NCBI GenBank assembly: GCA_964426725.1
Contig: CAYRRV010000009.1
Coordinates: 15,255 to 79,254 of the forward strand
Length of the DNA: 64,000 nucleotides
Direction of reading: 5' to 3'
From: an uncultured Bacteroidales bacterium
GTDB lineage: Bacteria > Bacteroidota > Bacteroidia > Bacteroidales > CAYRRV01
The position numbers and the translations under genes are program-made. Of this stretch, positions 1,255-14,416 are shown in pieces. Under the pieces are notes generated by a model, which did not search any database, was not told the DNA's origin, and saw only the letters and a program-made list of their open reading frames with translations. Each line of letters starts with the position of its first letter. Position 1 is the first letter of the stretch.

Positions 1255-3960
1255 CTATTTTCCCTTTTTGTCACTTAGTTTTTTCTTCAGGTTTTCAATT
1301 TCCAGGTTTGCTTCTTCCAACATTTTATATCGTTGTTTCTTTTCTGTAATGTCCTGTGCCAGGTAATATACTTTATAAAGGTTTCCATCTTCGTCAATTA
1401 CCGGATTGAAATTTGACATGAGCCAGATTTCCCTGCCATCTTTCCGTGTTCTTTTCACGACCCCCTTGAAAGATTTTCCTTCATGGAGTTTTTTCCAAAT
1501 ATTTTCAAATTCTTCTCTTTCATCATCAGCCAGCAGGGTGATGTATTTGATCCCGGGTAAGTCAGCAGGTTTTAAACCAGTAGCATGCACGAAATTGTCG
1601 TTCACAACTGTAATCACGCCTTCTTGGTCTAACTCACACTTAATAAGGGAGTTGTCTACTGCTTCCATGATGGAATTCAATTCTATATTTTTTCTGGCCA
1701 GTTCGATTGCCTGGTTTTTCATGGATTCCTCACTTTGCTTGGTTTCTGTAATATCTGAAGCCATGGTGAGTATCTTGTAAGGAATACCCGAGGTATCAAA
1801 AATAGGTGAAAAATGTTCTTTCAGCCAAATGTTTGTACCCGATGCAAGCCTGATCTTATCAGTTTTTATGATTGATTTGCCGGCGGCCAAATCTTCCCAC
1901 ATTTTTCGGTATGATGCATCGCTGCTTTCAATTCCCGCGAAGTACGCGTAATCCTTTCCAATCAGCGTGTTTTCTGTTGTATCCAGCAACTCGAGAAGCT
2001 TGCTGTTTACTTTTATGATTTTACCTTTCATATCGAACTCGATGAATAGTGAGGCAGTATCAATGGCATTCAATATTCCTGATATTTCATTTTCCCGCCG
2101 GGCAGATTCCTCCTGCGTGGCTTGCAGTTCCTCCATGTTTTGCCTCATTTCTTCTTCCTGCTCAGTCATTTCCTGCGCTTGTTTCTGTGATTGCTCAAGC
2201 AATTTAGCTGTTTGTTCATTTATTTTCACGGCGTTAATTGTAGAAGCAATACTTGAGGCGATTTTTTCAGCAAATTCGATCTCATGGGGTTGGAATTTAT
2301 TAAACGAAGCCATTTCAATAACGCCAAGTACTTCATCCTCCAGTTTAAGAGGAAGAATGAGTATACAGTTGGGGGTTGCTTCTCCTAAACCAGATGTGAT
2401 GGTTATATAATCTTCCGGGATCTCGGTTAACATGAGGGTGTCTTTTTCAATCATGCAGGTACCAATAAGCCCTTCCCCGGGCAGGATTCTTTTCTCCGTG
2501 TATTTTTTCTTGTTATAGGCAAAAGCTGAAACAAGATCCAAAACTTTTTCTGCATCATCATTTTCATTGACAATGAAAATACCTCCCTGGTTAGCATCGA
2601 GATAGTTGATCATGTTTTGGATAATATTATCGCAAAGCAGGGTGATATTATCATTGTTTTGTCTCAGTATTTCACCAAATTTTGCCAGTCCCTCGTTGGA
2701 CCATCTACGCTTACGATCTTCAGCCTGGTACTTTTCTTCTTCTTCCTTGGCTAGTTGAAGGCTTTTTTCCATTTCGATAAGTGAATTTCCCAGCAAATCT
2801 TCGTCACCCAATGGCTTGTATGAAGCGGAAAGATTTCCCTTCCCGATATTTTTGGCAAATTCGGCTTTCTTCCTGAGATCTTCAACGAAATTCATTAATA
2901 GCTGATTAATAGTTGAAATTTCATCGTTGCCCCTGAGTTCAATTTTCTCTGGCAGGTAGCCCTTGATGAGTTTCCGGATATATTCAGTAACACTTTTTAT
3001 GGATGATTCAAAGTTATACAACAAGTAAAACAAGTAAGCAATTATAATGATCGATGCAATGACCAGTAAAATAATGAGGTTATTGACTGATTTACTAATA
3101 TTATCGTCTATTATCGCGTTTAGTTTTACATTAATTTGGTTTAGTTTTTTTTCCAGTTGCCCGCTTGAATTTTCCAACCTTGTTGCCAGTCGGGTTTGAT
3201 CGCCCGTTTGTCCCGTGTTTTCTTCAGCGGAAATAAGGTTGGAAACAGCAACCTTGTAATCATTCAGGTAACCGGTTAATTCAGAAATTTGAACATCGTC
3301 AAATTCCTGCAGTGATTCGGCCATTCCCATGCCAATGAATTCTATAGCTTCATCAATTCGCCTGGTTATTGCCTGCAGGTGTTCTGGTTCTTCTGTAGAA
3401 AAATAAATGGATTCAAGGGATTTAATATTAGCAACCAGATTCAATGCATAATTATTATTCAGAAGACTAATGAAGTTTTTAAGCGTGTTTGAGGATTCGA
3501 GCATATCTTCAATCGCACCGGTTTTTTTGTTTCCTTTGATGGCGATTTTTTTGCTAAAATCAAGCACCATCGTGCTGTATTCTTCCTGGAGGTCGGCTAT
3601 TTCCTGAAGACCGGCAGCTATTTCTTCCTGTTGGATTGTTTTAATATTCTTAAGATATGCTATGTTTTTATTGTTCTCCAGGAGGATGGTATCAATTTGT
3701 TCTTCAATGAAATTATCCTTTTTGTTGAAGAAGTCCGGGCGATTATAATTAGCCAGGATTTCATTTGACAGGGACTTCAACCTGAATGAATTGGATATCA
3801 ATTCCTTATTTGTGGTTTGCAATTGGTGATAATGATTAATTCGTTTTAGTGAATTCACCGTGATTATCCCTATGAGAAAACAGAACAAAATAATAATCCC
3901 GGTAAGCAGGGAAATCTTGTCCTTAATTGTTAAGTTTAATTTTCTCATTTTTACATTCAT
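1255..3960 (-). CDS. Membrane sensor: TM-periplasmic helical domain-TM-HAMP-GAF-coiled coil-2x PAS/PAC, no output domain
   Basis: Two hydrophobic segments, HAMP-like GNDEIS, GAF motif GEGLIG...LPLK...GVIEMAS, QEEEMRQNMEELQATQEE coil, two PAS/PAC repeats ending in DITE. Confidence 0.85.
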   Translation of the reverse strand: MNVKMRKLNLTIKDKISLLTGIIILFCFLIGIITVNSLKRINHYHQLQTTNKELISNSFRLKSLSNEILANYNRPDFFNKKDNFIEEQIDTILLENNKNIAYLKNIKTIQQEEIAAGLQEIADLQEEYSTMVLDFSKKIAIKGNKKTGAIEDMLESSNTLKNFISLLNNNYALNLVANIKSLESIYFSTEEPEHLQAITRRIDEAIEFIGMGMAESLQEFDDVQISELTGYLNDYKVAVSNLISAEENTGQTGDQTRLATRLENSSGQLEKKLNQINVKLNAIIDDNISKSVNNLIILLVIASIIIIAYLFYLLYNFESSIKSVTEYIRKLIKGYLPEKIELRGNDEISTINQLLMNFVEDLRKKAEFAKNIGKGNLSASYKPLGDEDLLGNSLIEMEKSLQLAKEEEEKYQAEDRKRRWSNEGLAKFGEILRQNNDNITLLCDNIIQNMINYLDANQGGIFIVNENDDAEKVLDLVSAFAYNKKKYTEKRILPGEGLIGTCMIEKDTLMLTEIPEDYITITSGLGEATPNCILILPLKLEDEVLGVIEMASFNKFQPHEIEFAEKIASSIASTINAVKINEQTAKLLEQSQKQAQEMTEQEEEMRQNMEELQATQEESARRENEISGILNAIDTASLFIEFDMKGKIIKVNSKLLELLDTTENTLIGKDYAYFAGIESSDASYRKMWEDLAAGKSIIKTDKIRLASGTNIWLKEHFSPIFDTSGIPYKILTMASDITETKQSEESMKNQAIELARKNIELNSIMEAVDNSLIKCELDQEGVITVVNDNFVHATGLKPADLPGIKYITLLADDEREEFENIWKKLHEGKSFKGVVKRTRKDGREIWLMSNFNPVIDEDGNLYKVYYLAQDITEKKQRYKMLEEANLEIENLKKKLSDKKGK

Positions 3961-3967
3961 AACCTCG

Positions 3968-4810
3968 TTATTGTTTTTTAATATATGCTTGCTCTTTTTT
4001 AGTAAAATTAGCCGTGTAAGGTCCGAGAATGGTCTCGTGTAATCCTAAAATAAGTGATCCTCCCGGGTATAGATTTTTATTAAATAAATCAAATACATTA
4101 TTCTGGAGGTCGTAATTAAAATAAATAATTACATTTCTGCAAAGAATAATATCAAATTTAATATAAAAGATGTTATCATCCTTTACAAGATCATGTTTTC
4201 TGAACACTGGTTTTTCAATGAGAAACTGGTTCATCCTGATAATGTCCCGGGTTTTGTCAATAGAAAAATATTTCTCGTACGAAATATCATTATAATCATC
4301 ATAATTATAGGGATTTTCCTTGATTACCTTGTCAAAATTATCAAGATATCCTATGTTAAACCTGTATTTGTATTCTCCCCTGGCAGCTGCTAAAAGCACG
4401 TCTGTATTGATATCCGTTCCAAAAACCTTGGTCTTGTGAAGTAAATTGAGCTCGTTAAGCAGGATGAGCATGCTGTAGACTTCCTGACCCGTGGAGCAGC
4501 CCGCGTGCCAGATGTTGATTACAGGATTGTCTTTATACAGCGGGAGAATTTTGTAGCGAAGTGTGTGCCATACCTGCGGATCACGAAATAATTCGGTGGT
4601 ATTTACAGTAATGTCCTTAACAATTTTCTCGACGAAATCCGAATCTTTTTTAATTTTAAGACAAAGGCCCTTAATGTCCATTTTGTTATCAGCCAACACT
4701 TTAGCCAGCCTTCTCCTGAGGGATTTTTCTGAATACTGACTGAAATCATATTCAGAAGCAGTCTTTATCGTTGAAATAAAAAAATCTATATCCTGTTCCG
4801 TGACATTCAT
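3968..4810 (-). CDS. cheR: CheR-family protein-glutamate O-methyltransferase (canonical motifs)
   Basis: YDFSQYS..SLRRR, TVNTTELFRDP, IWHAGCSTGQEVYSM, GTDIN, ILCRNVIIYF, LGLHE. Confidence 0.92.
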   Translation of the reverse strand: MNVTEQDIDFFISTIKTASEYDFSQYSEKSLRRRLAKVLADNKMDIKGLCLKIKKDSDFVEKIVKDITVNTTELFRDPQVWHTLRYKILPLYKDNPVINIWHAGCSTGQEVYSMLILLNELNLLHKTKVFGTDINTDVLLAAARGEYKYRFNIGYLDNFDKVIKENPYNYDDYNDISYEKYFSIDKTRDIIRMNQFLIEKPVFRKHDLVKDDNIFYIKFDIILCRNVIIYFNYDLQNNVFDLFNKNLYPGGSLILGLHETILGPYTANFTKKEQAYIKKQ

Positions 4811-6268: not shown

Positions 6269-6886
6269 ATGGAGTTCAGAAAAGTTGTTGAAAGCAGAAC
6301 AAGCATAAGAAATTTTAAAAGTGATAAAGTACCCGTGGAAGATATAAAGGAGTTGGTAAGAATTGCTTCCATGGCGCCGAGTATAAATAATTTTCAACCA
6401 TGGAAATTTATAGCCATCACAAATAGGGATATTCTCAAGAACATGTCTGAAGCTGTTTCCCGGAAAATTCAGTCGTTACCATCCTCAAAATCCCGGGCAT
6501 CGAAAAACGTGAAGTCTCAGGTTGAATGGTTTTCTACCTTTTTTAGTGAAGCTCCTCTTGTTATTGCTGTTATCATGGAAGATTACGAGTCGATTCTGGA
6601 GAAAGGGGTCGGGCTTTCACATGATGATATCAATAAAGCACGAAACTATCCTGATATTCAAAGCGCGGGAGCATGTATTGAGAATATGTTGCTGGGAGCG
6701 GTCGACATGGGATACGGGGGTTGTTGGCTTAGTGCCCCCATGGTGGCATCTGAAGAAATATCAGAGATGCTTAAAATTGAAAAGCCATACCGTGTAATCG
6801 CTTTTGTTGCCATTGGTAAACCTGCCGGGGACCCGCGACCGAGAGAGAAAAAGGAAGTTTCAGACCTGCTTGGTTTTATTGATTGA
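6269..6886 (+). CDS. Nitroreductase family protein
   Basis: RTSIRNF, APSINNFQPWKF, ENMLLGAVDMGYGGCW, VAIGKP. Confidence 0.9.
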   Translation: MEFRKVVESRTSIRNFKSDKVPVEDIKELVRIASMAPSINNFQPWKFIAITNRDILKNMSEAVSRKIQSLPSSKSRASKNVKSQVEWFSTFFSEAPLVIAVIMEDYESILEKGVGLSHDDINKARNYPDIQSAGACIENMLLGAVDMGYGGCWLSAPMVASEEISEMLKIEKPYRVIAFVAIGKPAGDPRPREKKEVSDLLGFID

Positions 6887-6892
6887 CATTAT

Positions 6893-7369
6893 TTAGCTAA
6901 AACAGGAAACAACCGTGAATTTATTCATGCCTTTTTTCCCGGTTACGATAGTATTACCACACCTTAACCAGGCATGAGCCTTGAGTTTTTTTGTATCATC
7001 TTTGGCCACGCCAAAATAGATGGTTGTGTCATGACCTAAAGTTTTTAACATTTTTTGGGCGATAATAGCCTCAACCATACACTTATTTTTCCAGGGAAGG
7101 TACCTGCCCGATCTTTTGATTGCTTTTGATACCTGACGCAGAGTGTTGTCCAGGCTACGGCAGTTCGCTCTTTCGGGAGTTTGCCGGTTGACTTTTCCCA
7201 ACCAACGTGCATACCATCGCATCGGCAAGAAACTAACCATGGGCTTTATGAGAATAGCGTAGCCCAGGGCCCTGAAAAAAAGTTTTTTTTCAATTCCCGA
7301 TAATGATTTCCAGGATGTGAATTTCCCCGGGATTCGTGTAAAATTATATGCAGAAAGATTATGTTCCAT
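6893..7369 (-). CDS. Lasso peptide biosynthesis B2 protein (transglutaminase-like leader peptidase)
   Basis: PWKNKCMVEA (catalytic Cys), IYFGV, KAHAWL (catalytic His); adjacent to a PqqD-like RRE. Confidence 0.88.
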   Translation of the reverse strand: MEHNLSAYNFTRIPGKFTSWKSLSGIEKKLFFRALGYAILIKPMVSFLPMRWYARWLGKVNRQTPERANCRSLDNTLRQVSKAIKRSGRYLPWKNKCMVEAIIAQKMLKTLGHDTTIYFGVAKDDTKKLKAHAWLRCGNTIVTGKKGMNKFTVVSCFS

Positions 7370-7386
7370 AATATGGAGTCGAAAAC

Positions 7387-7677
7387 TCAGTTATTGACAA
7401 CGATAAGGTCTTTTTCATGCAACTCTTTCAGGAAAGCAGTAACATCATCCCTGCAAGTAGTTTCCTCTACATCATATTCATCGGTCAGGGTCTGAATTAT
7501 ATCATTGAAATGAACCGGCTTTTCGAGGATTTGCCAAATTCTGCTGCCAATTTCATCCAGGCCATAATATTCTCCTTTATCAATATTCATCATTACCACT
7601 TCTTCATCCATTTTGCTGAAGAGCAATTCGGTTTTTCTTTGAATGATTGAATTTTTTGTCAGTTTTAGTTTTCCCAT
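7387..7677 (-). CDS. PqqD-family RiPP recognition element (lasso B1)
   Basis: 96 aa, MDEEVVMM..DKGEYYGLDEIGSRIW...EYDV....CRDDV..FL..L...LI pattern. Confidence 0.9.
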   Translation of the reverse strand: MGKLKLTKNSIIQRKTELLFSKMDEEVVMMNIDKGEYYGLDEIGSRIWQILEKPVHFNDIIQTLTDEYDVEETTCRDDVTAFLKELHEKDLIVVNN

Positions 7678-7707
7678 TAATTTTTCATTTTGATTACATC
7701 CAAGATC

Positions 7708-8577
7708 TCAGGTGCATATTTCTCCCTGATCATCGAGGTACCCATAACGTATCATGATTTCCCGGTTCGCGTCAACAATTTCCTTCACTACCTTGGGAGG
7801 GAGCAATTTTTTCCAGGTTCCTGTTTTTCCTTCCCTGAAAAAAGAGCTGGCCCCGGGTGCTTTTTCAAGGAAACCTGATTTATTTTCCTGTTTTTTTAAT
7901 TCTTCAAAACTACTGAATTCCAATGCTTTTTTTATCTTTTTCTTATCGTTTTCTAAACCAGCAAAACGAACCGCCTTGGTAAATGTTTCAACAGGGTTTT
8001 CTAACATATCCTCGAAGCGGACTACCTGGACAGGGAATTTATCCTGATCTGTCCAGCTTTTCACGTGATCACTCCAAGTTAAAAGCCTTTGCTCGAGTTG
8101 ATTGTGTAATTTTTCAGGTTTGTTGCAAAAGCTGTGTTCGGGATTGTTCATTCTCCTGCTCATGGTCTGAAAATCTGTCGCGGCATGATGAGCAAAGGAA
8201 ACACACACATCAAGAGGATTTCTTATGAAATACAGTGCCCCGAAGGTAACATCAGGTGGTACCAGTTCCTTGCCGGTTCCTGTTAGAATGTTGGCATCAT
8301 GTATCTTGTGATAAATCGTGTTTTCCGATGTTTCTGCAATATACCTGTATACCTCCGGACGAAGTGTTTCAATTTCGGAAGGGGATAGATCGGAGGATGA
8401 TAAACCGGTAGCCTCATCGAACATTTGTCGGCTGCTGGCGATGGTTGTCGGGTATAAATTATTGATATTGGCAGGTTTTTCATTTTTATCCAGTAAATTG
8501 GTAAGGAAAACCCTGAACCAGGTGTTGCCTGACTTGGGATAGGAGGCCAGCCATATGATTTTCCTGTTCTCAGCCAT
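7708..8577 (-). CDS. PAPS-dependent sulfotransferase
   Basis: 5'-PSB WLASYPKSGNTW, 3'-PB IRNPLDVCVS, C-terminal FFREGKTGTWK. Confidence 0.9.
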   Translation of the reverse strand: MAENRKIIWLASYPKSGNTWFRVFLTNLLDKNEKPANINNLYPTTIASSRQMFDEATGLSSSDLSPSEIETLRPEVYRYIAETSENTIYHKIHDANILTGTGKELVPPDVTFGALYFIRNPLDVCVSFAHHAATDFQTMSRRMNNPEHSFCNKPEKLHNQLEQRLLTWSDHVKSWTDQDKFPVQVVRFEDMLENPVETFTKAVRFAGLENDKKKIKKALEFSSFEELKKQENKSGFLEKAPGASSFFREGKTGTWKKLLPPKVVKEIVDANREIMIRYGYLDDQGEICT

Positions 8578-9508
8578 TATTTTTAATGTCCTTGAGAATT
8601 AAATCCCGCAACTCGTCGATCATGAAAGAACGATTTGTCCGGGTAATTTTCTTAACCTGCAATTTTCCTGCAATATCCGAGAGGTACATGAAGTGAAGTT
8701 TTTCTTGTTGTAAACCCCTAATGAAATTGTAACGATAGGTATTGTTTTTTAGCGCGTTAAATTTTTCTATTCCTCTCAGCCTTTTCAGTTCAATACCTTC
8801 TTTATTTGATGCGTTGAGTATATATATGGTTGTGAGTGGCACTTTTTCGTTGACGAATTTCGAGGTCACGTCAATCCGGTATTTTTCCAGCATTTTTCGC
8901 ACCCTGGGTAAGTTTTCGTCGTATTGTTCAAGTTTTTTTAAAGAATCTCTCCAGAGTTTCATCCTGGGATAACCGGGATGAATAAAGGGAGTCTTTTCGC
9001 GGATTTCAATTACTGAAACATCATCTGTAATGAGTGAATAACCTTTTTGAAGGAAGGCACCTGCCAATGTGCTTTTTCCGCTACCGGAAACACCAGAGAA
9101 AATAATACCATTATTATCAATGACAATCCCGCTGCCATGGAATGGTAGCAGTCCTCTTTGCATTATCAGCGCACCGAAGGCCGATCCAAGCATAAACAAA
9201 CGTATGTCTTCGTCATTGCTGTTGGGAAAAGGTTGTATGGTTATGGAATCTCCATTTTTTACATGATAACGGGCCACCAAATCTACTTTCAAAAGAAATT
9301 CTCCCGGGGCAGCCTGGAACCTCACTCCTTTCGACAAAGGACTTTCGAGAGAATCCGGAACTTTACCAAAAGAAATGCGGACATCAGGGATGCCCGATGA
9401 GAGTGGCAAATCAGGACACTCGAGTTCCGATTCAACGACCAATCCAAAAACCTTATAAATATACGTAGTCTTTCGATTCAACTTCAAGAGTTTCGTGATG
9501 CTCACCAA
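8570..9508 (-). CDS. HPr-kinase-like lasso peptide kinase (PadeK/PsmK-like)
   Basis: PFHGS, Walker A GVSGSGKST, ITDD, PGYPRMKLW; N-terminal YKVFGLVVES. Confidence 0.85.
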   Translation of the reverse strand: MVSITKLLKLNRKTTYIYKVFGLVVESELECPDLPLSSGIPDVRISFGKVPDSLESPLSKGVRFQAAPGEFLLKVDLVARYHVKNGDSITIQPFPNSNDEDIRLFMLGSAFGALIMQRGLLPFHGSGIVIDNNGIIFSGVSGSGKSTLAGAFLQKGYSLITDDVSVIEIREKTPFIHPGYPRMKLWRDSLKKLEQYDENLPRVRKMLEKYRIDVTSKFVNEKVPLTTIYILNASNKEGIELKRLRGIEKFNALKNNTYRYNFIRGLQQEKLHFMYLSDIAGKLQVKKITRTNRSFMIDELRDLILKDIKNNG

Positions 9509-9554
9509 AAATACTTATTTTTGAATTAGTATAAAATGTTTTTTCGAATGCAAG

Positions 9555-10766
9555 GTGAGAGAGATATTTGACAATGATCATTTAAACCTTCCTGATTGGG
9601 CAGCATGGCTTATCCTGCTGACGAGGGATGATTACAGGAATCACACTAATCTGATACAAGAGTTGTTTTTTTCCATAGAGGATTATAACAGGCTTTTTTA
9701 TTTGATTCGCGCTCACCGGTTGGTTGTTCCGGTTTATTCTCACTTGAAAAAAATAAGTTGGGAAATGCCTGGGTTGTTTTTCAGAAAACTGGAAGCGGCC
9801 TACCGGAAGCAAAAGTTCACCAGTTTATCCAAAACATCTGATTTAATTCATCTTACCCGGTTATTCAGGGAAGCATCAATTCCCCTGATCGTGTTAAAGG
9901 GCCCTGCTTTATCAATGATCTTGTATGAGGAGGTTACTCACAGGGAATTCAGGGATTTGGATTTGTTGATCGGGCCAAATCACCTGAATAGGGCTTTGGA
10001 GTTATTATATAACCGGGGTTATGTTTCGGAGCTTCAGGATGTTTCAGATTTTCAATGGAAATATTACATGAGAAATTTCCAGGAAATCCTGTTAACACAC
10101 CCTGGCAGCAAAAGCCAGGTAGAATTGCACTGGCGACTATTTGGTAATTATTTATTATTCAAGGAAGATCTACCCGGGTTGATTAACAGACCTTCTTTTG
10201 TTAAAATAGGAGAGGATGCTATACCCACCCTGAATGGTACCGAACTTGCAATTTATCTTTTAGTCCATGGTTCGCTCCACATGTGGTACAGGTTATTTTG
10301 GCTAAAAGATGTATCGGTTCTTTTATCGGGATTTAAACCCGAGGAATGGGAAGAGCTTTACGCGCGGGCCAGGGAAAAGAAAATAGTTCGGCTTGTACTA
10401 TCCGGGATTCGGCTATCCGCTGAATATTATGGAGTGGATGTCCCGGGTAATATCTTTCAGTTGAGTAATGACAGTAAAACCAGGTTGTTGTGTAAAATGG
10501 TGAGAACAACTATTCACGCGGGACCTGAATGGATGCAATCCCGGGGCTGGCAAAGATTCAGAAGGTTATGGTACATGATAAACCTCAAGGATGATTTAAA
10601 TTACAAGATCCGGTGTATAAGAAGAACAGGTACTAACCCGGGCGATTGGAAAATTTTACAGCTTCCCGATAAATTATTTTTCCTGTATTTTATTCTTCGT
10701 CCTTTTACCTGGATCCTTAGCAGGAGAAAGACCATAAGAAAAGACAATAAACGGACTAAGAGATAG
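9555..10766 (+). CDS. Nucleotidyltransferase family protein (NTP_transf_5, PsmN-like)
   Basis: IVLKGPAL, REFRDLDLLI, VELHW, HGSLHMWYRLFWLKD. Confidence 0.82.
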   Translation: MREIFDNDHLNLPDWAAWLILLTRDDYRNHTNLIQELFFSIEDYNRLFYLIRAHRLVVPVYSHLKKISWEMPGLFFRKLEAAYRKQKFTSLSKTSDLIHLTRLFREASIPLIVLKGPALSMILYEEVTHREFRDLDLLIGPNHLNRALELLYNRGYVSELQDVSDFQWKYYMRNFQEILLTHPGSKSQVELHWRLFGNYLLFKEDLPGLINRPSFVKIGEDAIPTLNGTELAIYLLVHGSLHMWYRLFWLKDVSVLLSGFKPEEWEELYARAREKKIVRLVLSGIRLSAEYYGVDVPGNIFQLSNDSKTRLLCKMVRTTIHAGPEWMQSRGWQRFRRLWYMINLKDDLNYKIRCIRRTGTNPGDWKILQLPDKLFFLYFILRPFTWILSRRKTIRKDNKRTKR

Positions 10767-11367
10767 CCTCGAATTTATAATTCAGCCCGGAATAATATTC
10801 CAGTAATTCTTCGAGAACTTGTAATACTTTAGGATGCGCGTGTTTGGCGTCATGGAAAACTACAATGGATCCACCGGTTATGTGTTTTTTTACCCGGGTT
10901 AAAGTCTTTTGAATTGAAATCATTTGATTAAAGTCATATACCATTACATCCCAAAGAATGATAGTATACTGTTTGCTGAGATTTTTATATTGCGCGGGTC
11001 GCATTAACCCGTGAGGTGGGCGAAAGAGATGGCTTTTTATTGTTGATTCTGCTTTTTCGACATCTTTTATATAATGTCTGGAATTGGTCTTTAATCCGTT
11101 GAGATGAACAAAGCCATGATTTCCAATAGCATGACCTTCGCTTCGAATTCTGTCTACAATGCCGGGGTATTGCTCAACCTGAAACCCGAGGCAAAAAAAG
11201 GTAGCTTTCGCCTGGTATCGCTTAAGCACATCCAGAACTTTGGGGGTTACTTCAGGATCGGGCCCGTCATCGAAAGTGAAAAATAAAGACCCCGGTTTAT
11301 TAGGAAAACATATAATGGCTTTATTGTAAATCTTCCTGATGAACCGGGGTGTTTTGAATAAGATCAT
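10756..11367 (-). CDS. Polysaccharide deacetylase (CE4/NodB)
   Basis: TFDDGP, ATFF, GNHGFVH, FRPPHG, IVVFHD. Confidence 0.92.
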   Translation of the reverse strand: MILFKTPRFIRKIYNKAIICFPNKPGSLFFTFDDGPDPEVTPKVLDVLKRYQAKATFFCLGFQVEQYPGIVDRIRSEGHAIGNHGFVHLNGLKTNSRHYIKDVEKAESTIKSHLFRPPHGLMRPAQYKNLSKQYTIILWDVMVYDFNQMISIQKTLTRVKKHITGGSIVVFHDAKHAHPKVLQVLEELLEYYSGLNYKFEAIS

Positions 11368-11368
11368 T

Positions 11369-14300
11369 TTAGTTGTATGGCATAAGAATCATTTCCAGTT
11401 CAGACTGAATGCTGTCACTAAGCTCTTGTTGATCATACTGTTTTGTAATCCTGACAATTTCCTGTATGATGTGAACATTCAATCTTCTCTCGTAATCAGC
11501 CTCATCAGGGAATTGTTTTGCCAGCCTGAAGTAGAAATTTATTTCCTCCAGGGTAATATTTGCCAGTTTTTGGAATATTTCATTTCCTTTTTCAGGCATG
11601 TTCAGTTTATAATAAGTTTCCCCGAGGGGAAGGTTGAAATAATTATAAGGTATTCTCTCGTGGGGCATTAGTTCCATGCACTTGTCAAGAACAATTCTTG
11701 CCGAATCTGTCTTGCCTTCATCAATGAGAGCGTTCGCGAGCCGGGCAAAATTATTCCGGAAATTTGTGAGCATGCGAAGATTATTCTCATCAAGATAGAT
11801 ATCCTTACCGGATTCAATGCCTCCCCACTTAAATACATTGATCATGTTGTTGTACATGATATCCGTGTCGATAGAACCAATTTGTCCGGCCTCGGTATTG
11901 GCTTTCACGGGAACAATTTTGTAAGCGAGACCGTGGATTTGGAAATAATTTTCCAGGTTCAGGTAATTATCCCTGGCTACCGTGATGGCAAAATAAATTG
12001 GACGTTCCCAATTTGCGTGAGCAAGAAGATCGAGCACCATCATGTCGCTTTTGGTAATAAGGTTCCTGTCCAGGGAAAACTCAATTGTATTGACAATATC
12101 GTCAGCAAACTTTTCACTTACCGTGCCGGTTTGCATTATTTTCTGTGAATCAACCGGCAAAAAGAATTTTTTAGACGGCAGGTAATCTATTCTTTCCCTG
12201 TAATTGGGCATTGTTTTGGTTCTGTCATCGTCACTGGCCAGAAAATCAATGGCTTCTTTCAGGTTAACAGGCCGGTTGAAACGCTCAACGATATAGACCA
12301 CGTCGCGTGTCCCTTGCAGGTACTTATCCTTTTCGAGACTGAAGGGTAGGGGATCCGACTCGTATGCTTTTCTTTCCATTTGTTCGATATACCAGTCGGC
12401 ACCGAGATAGCTCAGGTTCACGACCCGCACATCGGTTCTGATTCCTTCCACTTCCTGTGCATACCATAAAGGGAAGGTGTCGTTATCGCCCATGGTAAAC
12501 AAGATGGCATTAGGAGCACATGAATTGAGGTAGTTATATGCAAAATCTCTTGCCGTGTATCTTCCAGACCGGTCATGATCGTCCCAGTTTTCCGCTGCCA
12601 TGATGCCGGGAACAAGGAAGGCCGCGAGCAGTGTTGAGAGAATAGGACTAACGGGTCCGGCGATGATTTTTTTGAACAGCTCGGTCAGCCACAGTACACC
12701 AATACCAATCCAGATCGCGAATGCATAAAATGAACCGGCATAGGCGTAATCACGTTCCCTTGGCTGGTATGGAGTTTGGTTCAGGTAAATAACGATGGCA
12801 ATACCGGTGAGCACGAAGAGCATGGTTACTATCGAGAAGTCTTTCTTATCTTTGGAGTATTGGTAAAAAATTCCGGCAATACCCAGCAGTAAGGGTAACA
12901 GGTAATACTTGTTTCTAGCCTTGTTGTTAGCCAGTGAATCGGGAAGATCCTCCTGTGGTCCAAGCCTGTATTCATCAATAAATTGTATGCCACTTAACCA
13001 GTTTCCATGCAGCTTATTCCCATGGCCCTGGATGTCGTTCTGGCGTCCCGCGAAATTCCACATGAAATATCGCCAGTACATGAAGCCCATCTGGTAGTTC
13101 CAGAAGAAACGCAGGTTTTCACCGAAGGTTGGTTTATTGACGGTTTCTGTTTCCCCTGCCCTGTTTTGAATTTGCATCGGTATACCTTTAACCCGTCCCC
13201 ATTCCTTGTATGCTTCCACGTGCCGGGGATCCTCGCTATACATTCGCGGGAAGATAGTCGTGAAATCCGGGTCATAAATATATTCCGGTTTTCGATTGGT
13301 TACGATGTATTTGCCGTCTTGTTGGGTGTAAGTGGGTTTGGTACGTTTTACATCAATGACCGGCGCGTTGTAATACTGTCCTTTTACAAGTGGGCGATCG
13401 CCATATTGTTCACGGTTCAGGAAGCGAAGCAATGAAAAGATGGTTTCCGGGTCATTCTGATCCATGGGCGGATCAGCCAGTGATCGTATTACAATCATGG
13501 AATATGAGGAATAGCCAATGATCATCACGGCGAAACCCAGTATAATTGTATTAAGAACAACTTTACCATGTTCAAGCGTGTATTTTATGCCGTAAATCAC
13601 GGAACCTATAAAGACGATAGCGAAAATAATTACTCCCGTTTTGTACGGTAGGTTCAGGACATTCACGAAAAACAACTCGAACCAGCTTGTAAACTTTACA
13701 ATGCCCGGGATCACGATATACATTACAGCTCCAAGAATCAGTACAGAAACCAGTAAGGCGTATATAATTCCATTCCGGGTAACTTTGTATTTTTTGAAAT
13801 AATAGACAAAAACAATGGCAGGAATGGCTAAGAGGTTCAGGAGATGCACCCCGATAGAAAGTCCCATGAGATAGGCAATGAGGATGATCCATTGCGTGCT
13901 GTGCTTTTCATCTGCCACGTTTTCCCACTTGAGAATAGCCCAGAAAACTACTGCTGTAAATAACGATGAGGTAGCGTATACTTCAGCTTCAACAGCAGAA
14001 AACCAGAAAGTGTCGGAAAAAGTATAAGCCAGTGCACCTACCAGACCTGCTCCCATGATGGAAAGAATACCGGTAGTAGTGTATTCATTGTTTTTTACAA
14101 TAATTTTACGGGCGAAATGAGTTATTGTCCAGAAAAGGAAAAGAATGGTGAAGGCACTTGCCAGTGCAGATAAGCTGTTCATGAGAGGGGCAACCTTCGT
14201 GACATCTCCCCCGGCAAAAAGGGTGAAGAACCGGCCAAGGATCATGAAAAACGGTGCTCCCGGTGGATGTCCTACTTCCAGCTTGAAGGCCGTTGATATG

Positions 14301-14416
14301 AATTCGCCACAATCCCAGAAACTAGCAGTGGGTTCAATTGTTAATAGATAAACTACAGCGGCAATCAGGAATGTAAACCATCCCGTGATACTATTAATTT
14401 TCCTGTATCTCTCCAT
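11369..14416 (-). CDS. DUF2723 GT-C membrane glycosyltransferase (TMEM260-like)
   Basis: FWDCGEFI, HPPGAP, WFSAVEAEVY, PRERDYAY, GDNDTFPLWY; many TM helices. Confidence 0.88.
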   Translation of the reverse strand: MERYRKINSITGWFTFLIAAVVYLLTIEPTASFWDCGEFISTAFKLEVGHPPGAPFFMILGRFFTLFAGGDVTKVAPLMNSLSALASAFTILFLFWTITHFARKIIVKNNEYTTTGILSIMGAGLVGALAYTFSDTFWFSAVEAEVYATSSLFTAVVFWAILKWENVADEKHSTQWIILIAYLMGLSIGVHLLNLLAIPAIVFVYYFKKYKVTRNGIIYALLVSVLILGAVMYIVIPGIVKFTSWFELFFVNVLNLPYKTGVIIFAIVFIGSVIYGIKYTLEHGKVVLNTIILGFAVMIIGYSSYSMIVIRSLADPPMDQNDPETIFSLLRFLNREQYGDRPLVKGQYYNAPVIDVKRTKPTYTQQDGKYIVTNRKPEYIYDPDFTTIFPRMYSEDPRHVEAYKEWGRVKGIPMQIQNRAGETETVNKPTFGENLRFFWNYQMGFMYWRYFMWNFAGRQNDIQGHGNKLHGNWLSGIQFIDEYRLGPQEDLPDSLANNKARNKYYLLPLLLGIAGIFYQYSKDKKDFSIVTMLFVLTGIAIVIYLNQTPYQPRERDYAYAGSFYAFAIWIGIGVLWLTELFKKIIAGPVSPILSTLLAAFLVPGIMAAENWDDHDRSGRYTARDFAYNYLNSCAPNAILFTMGDNDTFPLWYAQEVEGIRTDVRVVNLSYLGADWYIEQMERKAYESDPLPFSLEKDKYLQGTRDVVYIVERFNRPVNLKEAIDFLASDDDRTKTMPNYRERIDYLPSKKFFLPVDSQKIMQTGTVSEKFADDIVNTIEFSLDRNLITKSDMMVLDLLAHANWERPIYFAITVARDNYLNLENYFQIHGLAYKIVPVKANTEAGQIGSIDTDIMYNNMINVFKWGGIESGKDIYLDENNLRMLTNFRNNFARLANALIDEGKTDSARIVLDKCMELMPHERIPYNYFNLPLGETYYKLNMPEKGNEIFQKLANITLEEINFYFRLAKQFPDEADYERRLNVHIIQEIVRITKQYDQQELSDSIQSELEMILMPYN

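Follow-up and report, generated by a model that had tools for sequence, protein, structure and literature searches.

The locus studied here occupies positions 6893 to 10766 of the window, by which we mean the whole analyzed stretch of 64,000 nucleotides of DNA, and comprises five genes. Four of them are encoded on the minus strand in the order K-ST-B1-B2 and form one tight operon: an HprK-like kinase (K; 312 aa, 8570-9508), a PAPS-type sulfotransferase (ST; 289 aa, 7708-8577), a PqqD-type leader-recognition protein, or RRE (B1; 96 aa, 7387-7677), and a transglutaminase-like leader peptidase (B2; 158 aa, 6893-7369). The fifth gene, an NTP_transf_5 nucleotidyltransferase (N; 403 aa, GTG start, 9555-10766), lies divergently on the plus strand, separated from K by an intergenic region of 46 nt (9509-9554). 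According to the translation of the window, all five ORFs are intact and full length at these coordinates. Counted from the preceding nitroreductase gene through B2, B1, ST and K to N, the intergenic spacings are 6, 17, 30, -8 and 46 nt, the negative value reflecting an 8 nt overlap of the ST start with the end of K.

A nitroreductase gene (6269-6886, plus strand; PF00881), which we use as a synteny anchor and place outside the pathway, precedes B2. On the other side, N overlaps a polysaccharide deacetylase gene (10756-11367, minus strand) by 11 nt, followed by a TMEM260-like glycosyltransferase gene (11369-14416, minus strand), named after its homologues in related loci. The original prediction of a single operon with a divergent nucleotidyltransferase gene, framed by nitroreductase and deacetylase, is confirmed by ORFs, profile scores and a domain scan. 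The same holds for the missing components: no cyclase and no precursor gene is present in the window, the spaces between the genes are too small to accommodate a precursor gene, and no exporter is found in the immediate flanks. A domain search did not reveal a single Asn_synthase match anywhere on C9, the contig that carries the window. The ABC/TerB gene at C9:7487-10570 is part of a conserved flank, also present in the related locus L030.

B2 matches the lasso_biosyn_B2 model NF033537 (and PF13471) with 96.6 bits (cut-off 33; 1.4e-27), contains Cys97 and His132, which are invariant in an alignment of ten sequences, and exists in a single copy in the whole assembly. Against lasso_PqqD_Bac (NF033536; also PF05402), B1 reaches 99.5 bits (cut-off 80; 9.1e-29) and is the sole strong PqqD match in the assembly. 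N is assigned to PF14907 with 163.6 bits (cut-off 31.2; 8e-48); compared with solved structures, it gave no match at E <= 0.1. A homologue of N comes after the cyclase in L024, L027, L031 and L106-L108, and after B2 in the clusters of Bacillaceae. The match of K to PF07475 is weak, with 28.8 bits (1.1e-6) below the cut-off of 33.3, and K is also weakly matched by TIGR04355, TIGR04352 and the HPr kinase structure PDB 3tqf (9.5e-4). It has a P-loop at residues 139-147, and its homologues are part of lasso clusters in Bacillaceae, in cyanobacteria and in further phyla.

ST matches PF00685 with 78.7 bits (cut-off 22; 6.1e-22). Its translation shows both PAPS-binding loops, at residues 14-20 and 119-123, and an APS kinase is encoded on contig C91. 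Among solved structures, Teg12, Teg14, StaL and the cytosolic SULT1 enzymes are closest to ST. Homologues of ST with 49-60% identity are located immediately after K in all 12 assessable related loci. Among 62 longer homologues, 27 additionally carry an HPr-kinase domain, one an Asn_synthase domain, and 15 are fused to DUF6065; fusions were verified for P0001 (ST-K) and P0002 (ST-cyclase). This tight coupling to K, by gene overlap at our locus and by at least 27 fusions elsewhere, points to sulfation of a lasso peptide. A review mentions a putative sulfotransferase gene in some Firmicutes lasso clusters and gives no function (PMC8498205), and the literature searched contained no report on the product of such a sulfotransferase.

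A whole-genome search for lasso cyclases, as advised in the original prediction, recovered one lasso-type fragment, on a different contig, such that the lasso genes do not form one contiguous cluster. The fragment, C44:1-1146 (minus strand), encodes the first 382 residues of a cyclase at the very start of its contig. It scores 355 bits over positions 1-372 of the 668 positions of NF033535, where the cut-off for the whole protein is 525, and 165.9 bits, a lower score, against asparagine synthase. Its residue 2 is Ser and the Cys nucleophile is lacking, while an ordinary AsnB, beginning with Met-Cys, is located on the separate contig C56. The C-terminal half was found in the assembly neither with NF033535 nor with the full-length cyclase of genome G045 as query, and a search for the missing DNA among metagenome contigs yielded a best match of just 52% identity. 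Cyclases closest to the fragment are encoded within K/ST/B1/B2 clusters or as part of cyclase-precursor-SprB units. Identities to individual cyclases amount to 66% (G047), 62% (G046), 46% (G045) and 46% (G048).

These relatives allow the cyclase to be placed. In all three related genomes assembled in this region (G045, G047 and G048), cyclase, precursor and SprB genes follow each other on one strand. Contig C9 starts inside a gene of the SprB type: C9:2-3469 (plus strand), cut at the contig start, ranks first among the SprB homologues of the genome. Its product contains nine SprB repeats as well as a Por_Secre_tail and shares 37% identity with residues 368-1468 of the protein in G045. PurD and a gene order like that of L030 come after this gene, and the orientations of both contigs agree with the order in the relatives. 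From this order and the start of C9 inside SprB, we conclude that reverse-C44 most likely joins C9, with roughly 1.9 kb missing between them, as modelled on G047. By synteny and orientation, the cyclase would then most likely lie on the left of B2, about 23 kb away. As the organism's own precursor gene and the C-terminal half of its cyclase are absent from the assembly, this join is one that we infer. Logan contigs from four runs all end no more than 5 nt from position 1 of C44, and in run X1 two more contigs, of 1938 nt and 561 nt, overlap the first 30 nt of C44. The assembly thus broke at a fork, and the DNA continues beyond C44. A look for RNA datasets covering the C44 stretch listed none, a result with no bearing on expression.

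Since the assembly is derived from metagenomes, C44 could be foreign to it, in which case the organism would truly have no cyclase. The GC content of the fragment is indeed atypical, with 0.499 compared to 0.405 for the window genes and a genome mean of 0.397, and may mean that the fragment was imported recently or varies between strains. However, it continues directly into 28.7 kb of DNA with a typical composition: the remainder of C44 has a GC content of 0.385 and ranks 50th of 74 contigs in tetranucleotide distance. Moreover, the nearest cyclases, those of G047 and G046, stem from Bacteroidales MAGs, and C9 begins exactly with the gene expected downstream of cyclase and precursor. We therefore consider a binning error scarcely credible.

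Precursors were found at 11 related Bacteroidota loci. They carry a lasso-type leader, adjoin B2 or the cyclase, and end in Ser in 9 of the 11 cases; the ST-B1 and B1-B2 gaps of the relatives hold repeats or inserted genes and no precursor. The original prediction had proposed to look for short ORFs with a lasso leader throughout the genome, and this search came back empty. The precursor sought would have an aromatic-x-x-Pro-x-Leu motif in its leader, a Thr close to where the leader is cleaved off, and a core whose ring contains an acidic residue. A regular-expression scan of the assembly gave nine matches, none of them resembling the family. A profile HMM built from ten precursors, which recovers the untrained precursors of G047 and G048 at about 1e-8, reached a best E of 2.3 over the whole assembly. 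A 23-aa ORF upstream of the C44 cyclase is unconvincing as a precursor. The assembly contains 34 runs of 100 N. By the gene order of the relatives, the precursor gene is expected in the unassembled gap between C44 and C9.

Dispersal over several loci is the rule in this Bacteroidota lineage. Among eight related genomes with K-ST loci devoid of a cyclase, seven encode a cyclase without N-terminal Cys elsewhere. In G041, G042 and G043, K-ST-B1-B2-precursor-SprB occupies one site and MFS-cyclase-N another, the two being about 44 kb apart on the same contig in G043. K-ST, B1-B2 and cyclase-precursor-SprB lie on three separate contigs in G045, G047 and G048, as do K (without ST), B1-B2 and the cyclase in G046. 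In the eighth genome, G044 (1.6 Mb), K-ST is present, while B2 and a lasso-type cyclase were not found. The surroundings of the cluster are partly conserved as well: a nitroreductase homologue (59% identical) adjoins K in L022, L023 and L025, and the deacetylase and TMEM260-like genes border the cluster as a pair in L022, L027, L029 and L031. In the comparison of homologous loci for cyclase absence, suggested in the original prediction, K-ST loci without a cyclase recur, and most of their genomes carry one at another place.

A pathway that needs no cyclase, the second option of the original prediction, is not supported by these data: cyclases occur elsewhere in seven of the eight related genomes, and precursors with lasso leaders lie next to B2 or the cyclase. 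In its wider form, K-ST, with or without B1 and B2, would modify linear peptides or other proteins, and the genomic cyclase would be unrelated. Such a role could account for K-ST being the only pair that stays together in all 12 assessable loci, for its occurrence without B1, B2 and cyclase within the available flanks of L019, L020, L021 and L030, and for the fusions of ST to DUF6065. On the other hand, the genomes of L019, L020 and L021 encode B1-B2 and cyclase-precursor units at other sites, fusion proteins join ST to K (at least 27 cases) or to a lasso-type cyclase (one case), B1 exceeds the cut-off of a lasso-specific PqqD model, and the sole precursor-like peptides found have a lasso-type leader. 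We regard this explanation as very unlikely.

A further possibility is that the window genes are a relic, left without selection after the loss of a cyclase once located between N and K, and that no lasso peptide is made. In L024, L026, L027 and L031, a cyclase gene lies exactly in this position, which measures 46 nt in our window, and the organism's own cyclase is known as a half gene only. Cyclase decay does occur in the family, because the G047 cyclase, the closest to ours, has an in-frame TGA and the L034 cyclase is split across two frames. The solitary K of G046 and the incomplete set of G044 fit this picture as well. But the five ORFs of the window are full length with their catalytic motifs kept, and the DNA runs on past the end of C44. 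N and K without an intervening cyclase are shared with L021 in genome G047, indicating an old arrangement rather than a fresh deletion. Furthermore, K, B1-B2 and the cyclase co-occur in seven of the eight related genomes although they are dispersed. Decay of the pathway thus appears unlikely to us.

With the cyclase at a second site, about 23 kb away by synteny, the data argue for a split cluster and not for a cyclase-free pathway. The C44 fragment, the context of its relatives, and synteny all support the first option of the original prediction, in which a split cluster acts in trans. In our judgement, the window probably represents the leader-processing and tailoring module (K-ST-B1-B2 and N) of a lasso peptide pathway that is split over two sites. 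The second site would consist of the cyclase gene, very probably a precursor gene, and the gene of a type-IX-secreted SprB-repeat protein, with the assembly gap apparently separating cyclase residues 1-382 on C44 from SprB on C9, which starts at about residue 368. We infer the existence of the organism's own precursor and, from characterized homologues, all chemical steps. B1 would bind the precursor leader, K would phosphorylate the C-terminal Ser, B2 would cut the leader off, and the cyclase, encoded in trans, would close the ring. N may then attach a sugar to the phosphate, like PsmN, and ST may transfer sulfate from PAPS to a hydroxyl on the peptide itself or on the group appended to it.

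The original prediction had likened the enzyme set to those of paeninodin and pseudomycoidin, and this likeness proved sound. In the Bacillaceae loci L065, L069 and L072, homologues of K, B1, B2 and N occur in that order; K is 34% identical to their kinases, and N is 24-28% identical to the gene following B2 in these loci, by which alone PsmN is represented here. The pseudomycoidin cluster psmCAKB1B2ND of Bacillus pseudomycoides (PMC6993621) has several parts in common with our pathway: split B1/B2, a kinase of the HprK type, a cyclase resembling Asn synthetase, represented on our side by the C44 fragment, a nucleotidyltransferase of an uncharacterized family, and a precursor ending in Ser, for which our side of the comparison is the precursors of the Bacteroidota relatives. 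In pseudomycoidin, the C-terminal Ser is phosphorylated by K, and N decorates the phosphate with one or two hexoses. In contrast, a single uninterrupted operon contains the psm genes, including one for an ABC exporter, while the genes studied here are probably split by about 23 kb, by synteny, and have no dedicated exporter adjacent to either module. Our pathway furthermore adds an ST translationally coupled to K and, in the relatives, a precursor beside a SprB-like gene. In the paeninodin pathway of Paenibacillus dendritiformis (reviewed in PMC8498205), PadeK modifies the precursor at its C-terminal Ser ahead of lasso folding; B1/B2 are split as in our locus, but the cluster is contiguous and is not known to contain N or a sulfotransferase.

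The Bacteroidales loci L024, L026, L027 and L031 resemble ours in the TMEM260-like/deacetylase flank and the order K-ST-B1-B2, with identities of 42-43% for K and 55-60% for ST. They differ in that a cyclase gene separates N from K and the precursor gene follows B2, and their cyclases share 27-33% identity with the C44 fragment. Window size combined with an assembly gap can make a lasso locus look as if it had no cyclase. Where a lasso pathway is routinely dispersed, as in this lineage, cluster-based genome mining will miscount or miss such systems.

Teg12, Teg14 and StaL are PAPS-dependent O-sulfotransferases that act on glycopeptide antibiotics, i.e., on peptide natural products. As the nearest solved relatives of ST (PDB 3mg9, 3nib and 2ov8; E = 5.5e-12 to 3.3e-6), they match only its central and C-terminal part, and their substrates are non-ribosomal glycopeptide aglycones, whereas the presumed substrate of ST is a ribosomal lasso peptide. 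It is conceivable, though rather doubtful when taken as a whole, that K-ST adds an undescribed sulfate modification on or next to the phospho-Ser, that the genes constitute a dispersed regulon of two to four loci in this Bacteroidota lineage, and that the precursor always lies directly upstream of a SprB-like gene. Even a phospho-sulfate or a sulfated phospho-sugar would be conceivable as the sulfate modification. The retention of the precursor gene directly upstream of the SprB-like gene would be a hint that the peptide may work together with this type-IX-secreted surface protein.

All five genes of the cluster at 6893-10766 of the window are intact. Encoded on the reverse strand are the leader peptidase B2 (6893-7369; NF033537, 96.6 bits, cut-off 33), the PqqD-type chaperone B1 (7387-7677; NF033536, 99.5 bits, cut-off 80), a PAPS-type sulfotransferase, ST (7708-8577; PF00685, 78.7 bits, cut-off 22), and an HprK-like kinase, K (8570-9508; PF07475, 28.8 bits, under the cut-off of 33.3); the NTP_transf_5 nucleotidyltransferase, N, is located on the forward strand (9555-10766; PF14907, 163.6 bits, cut-off 31.2). 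B2 retains Cys97 and His132, both invariant, the P-loop of K comprises residues 139-147, and ST contains what we take to be both PAPS-binding loops. The spacers of 6, 17, 30, -8 and 46 nt leave no room for a small gene in the cluster. Reading frames, family matches and spacers thus bear out the five-gene set of the original prediction, and the nitroreductase and polysaccharide deacetylase described as its flanks are found on the two sides. K, ST, B1, B2, and N are each present as a single copy in the assembly. Left of the cluster, the stretch 1255-4810 encodes a sensor protein of 901 aa and a methyltransferase of the CheR type (PF01739), neither of them linked to the cluster.

A kinase-based search with one genome per species yielded 13 related loci in Bacteroidota, which were mapped by tblastn and Pfam. 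K is directly followed by ST in all 12 assessable loci, while L029 stops at K. In L024, L026, L027, and L031, a cyclase gene stands between N and K; it shares its strand with N, and K-ST-B1-B2 occupy the opposite one. L029 likewise has a cyclase upstream of K; N gave no match there, and the contig extends no further than K. L027, L029, and L031 share with the window its TMEM260-like/deacetylase flank. In L022, L023, and L025, K-ST-B1-B2 is present and neither a cyclase nor N lies within 10 kb, L021 shows N adjoining K-ST, and L019, L020, and L030 comprise K-ST only; L028 is too short for a layout call. Given this variation, the window is one of several reduced layouts, and its cyclase-free junction of N and K is common to L021. 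A LiaF-like membrane protein follows K-ST in the K-ST-only loci, and K alone in genome G046 (L019 11866-14410, L021 11956-12666, L195 5344-7901). In L019 and L195 it is succeeded by a histidine kinase and a LytTR regulator; the contig of L021 ends shortly past it. The Pfam name LiaF carries a tie to cell-wall-active antibiotic responses.

Two readings had been proposed for the missing cyclase, a split cluster acting in trans or an RRE-dependent pathway that dispenses with a cyclase altogether. We therefore consider the eight genomes behind the cyclase-less loci (G041-G048), seven of which encode a cyclase at another site. The genomes of L022, L023, and L025 (G041, G042, and G043, respectively) harbor MFS, cyclase, N, DUF6272, and SiaC genes at a second site, in G043 approximately 44 kb from K on one contig; these cyclases comprise 628 aa and are devoid of the Cys nucleophile. 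In the genomes of L019, L021, and L020 (G045, G047, and G048, respectively), B1-B2 is located on a second contig and cyclase, precursor, and the gene of an SprB-repeat surface protein on a third, and in G046 K, B1-B2, and cyclase are spread over three contigs. G044 (L030; a 1.6-Mb assembly) yielded no B2 and no lasso-type cyclase. The loci that lack a cyclase belong to split clusters rather than to cyclase-free ones, and the consistent absence of a cyclase that the second reading entails was not found, G044 excepted.

The SiaC/DUF6272 pair directly follows cyclase-N in G041-G043 (L106 11320-12881). In the genome under study it occurs together with a PAS-GAF SpoIIE phosphatase at C9:10634-14279, on the contig of the window, between the end of an SprB gene and the window genes. 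The pair may represent a partner-switch regulator tied to the pathway, or plain synteny.

The assembly under study comprises 92 contigs and contains 34 runs of 100 N; contig C9, of which the window takes up positions 15255-79254, spans 114.5 kb. Profile searches with Asn_synthase and a lasso-cyclase model returned an ordinary AsnB with an N-terminal Met-Cys on contig C56, and a second match at C44:1-1146(-), a gene running off the start of contig C44. This fragment of 382 residues matches positions 1-372 of the 668 in the lasso-cyclase model with 355 bits, a higher score than with any asparagine-synthase model, and has Ser as residue 2. Its C-terminal half was not found anywhere in the assembly. 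The whole-genome search suggested by the original prediction thus points to a cyclase of this genome just outside the window, on another contig, and together with the seven relatives it favors the split cluster acting in trans.

Gene order and orientation suggest where C44 belongs. The best SprB homologue of the genome is the first gene on C9 (C9:2-3469, forward strand). It is truncated by the contig start, its alignment begins at residue 368 of the G045 SprB protein, and its product combines nine SprB repeats with a type-IX sorting domain. PurD comes after it, and then a gene order matching that 3' of K-ST in L030. With reverse-C44 placed before C9, the cyclase, the gap, and SprB come in this order on a single strand, matching G045, G047, and G048, and the cyclase would end about 23 kb from B2. 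With G047 as a model, a gap of ~1.9 kb is expected, holding ~220 cyclase codons, the precursor, and ~367 SprB codons. In four metagenome runs, the public contigs all break off no more than 5 nt from C44 position 1, and in one run the first 30 nt of C44 are overlapped by two more contigs of 1938 and 561 nt. The DNA continues past the C44 end, where a fork broke the assembly; at 1938 nt, the longer contig agrees in size with the expected gap. We consider the join, as part of the split-cluster explanation as a whole, rather probable.

The GC content of the C44 fragment is 0.499, compared to 0.385 in the remainder of C44 and 0.405 in the window genes, and the cyclase fragment of G046 (L032 3382-4173), cut by a contig end as well, shows 0.503 against 0.418 in its flanks. 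Raised GC and truncation in both fragments suggest that the cyclase piece is strain-variable or imported; the stops in four runs and the two continuations in one likewise suggest strain-level variation at this gene. In the closest cyclase, that of G047 (66% identity), residue 495 is followed by an in-frame TGA within a conserved motif (L207 2420-2422, G047:C68), which could mean that the gene is a pseudogene, that strains vary here, or that the assembly is in error. The cyclase of L034 (Latescibacterota) is split over two overlapping frames, and that of L033 (Chloroflexota) is 52% identical to the C44 fragment. In L033, a tandem pair of near-identical precursor-like genes also lies between cyclase and K-ST (10849-11616).

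Precursors were sought with a leader/core regular expression and then an HMM. They comprise 35-52 aa; the N-terminus is basic, the leader bears the motif Trp/Tyr-x-x-Pro-x-Leu, and a Thr is located close to the junction. Nine of 11 Bacteroidota precursors end in Ser. The genes adjoin B2 and the SprB-repeat gene, lying between them, in six loci (L022 12930-13088; L023 13008-13154; L025 12851-13006; L026 6062-6202; L027 13493-13639; L031 13747-13896), and lie between adjoining cyclase and SprB genes in G045, G047, and G048 (L109 7490-7597; L207 1980-2093; L208 6403-6540), these last three on the reverse strand. The HMM recovers the G047 and G048 peptides at ~1e-8, both outside its training set. 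Its best match in the assembly under study has E = 2.3, and the precursor of this genome is therefore not in the assembly. In 9/9 loci the precursor is located directly upstream, on the same strand, of a large SprB-repeat gene that encodes a type-IX secretion tail. This adjacency does not depend on which of B2 and the cyclase comes before the precursor, and outlasts the rearrangements that scatter the enzymes.

The set of K, B1, B2, N, and cyclase is already known. For pseudomycoidin, PMC6993621 describes phosphorylation of the C-terminal Ser by the kinase, possibly ahead of cyclisation, and a subsequent requirement of the nucleotidyltransferase for one or two hexoses on the phosphate; a review agrees on both roles (PMC8498205). 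By analogy, B1, B2, and the cyclase would form the lasso, K would phosphorylate the terminal Ser of the precursor, and N would glycosylate the phosphate. No dedicated exporter adjoins either module. On balance, the locus is probably part of a lasso pathway that is dispersed and includes a sulfotransferase, rather than of a cyclase-free system.

Sulfotransferase genes are mentioned, with role unknown, in some lasso clusters (PMC8498205; Letzel et al. 2014, PMC4289311); a non-exhaustive literature search found no characterisation of ST, the surveys only remarking on the gene. ST belongs to the lasso pathway. Its gene overlaps that of K by 8 nt in the window, and longer homologues are fused to an HPr-kinase domain (27/62) or an Asn-synthase domain (1/62); alignment verified the ST-cyclase fusion and one of the fusions of ST with K. 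Since the nearest solved relatives are Teg12, Teg14, StaL, and SULT1 enzymes, and the genome encodes an APS kinase, we infer that ST would catalyze PAPS-dependent O-sulfation. Tyr is not conserved in the precursor cores, which leaves a Ser/Thr hydroxyl, the sugar, or the phosphate as candidate acceptors. Of the 62 longer homologues, 15 carry a DUF6065 fusion instead of the kinase, and one is fused to TPR/O-GlcNAc-transferase-like repeats (P0034-P0050); the ST clade has partners besides the kinase.
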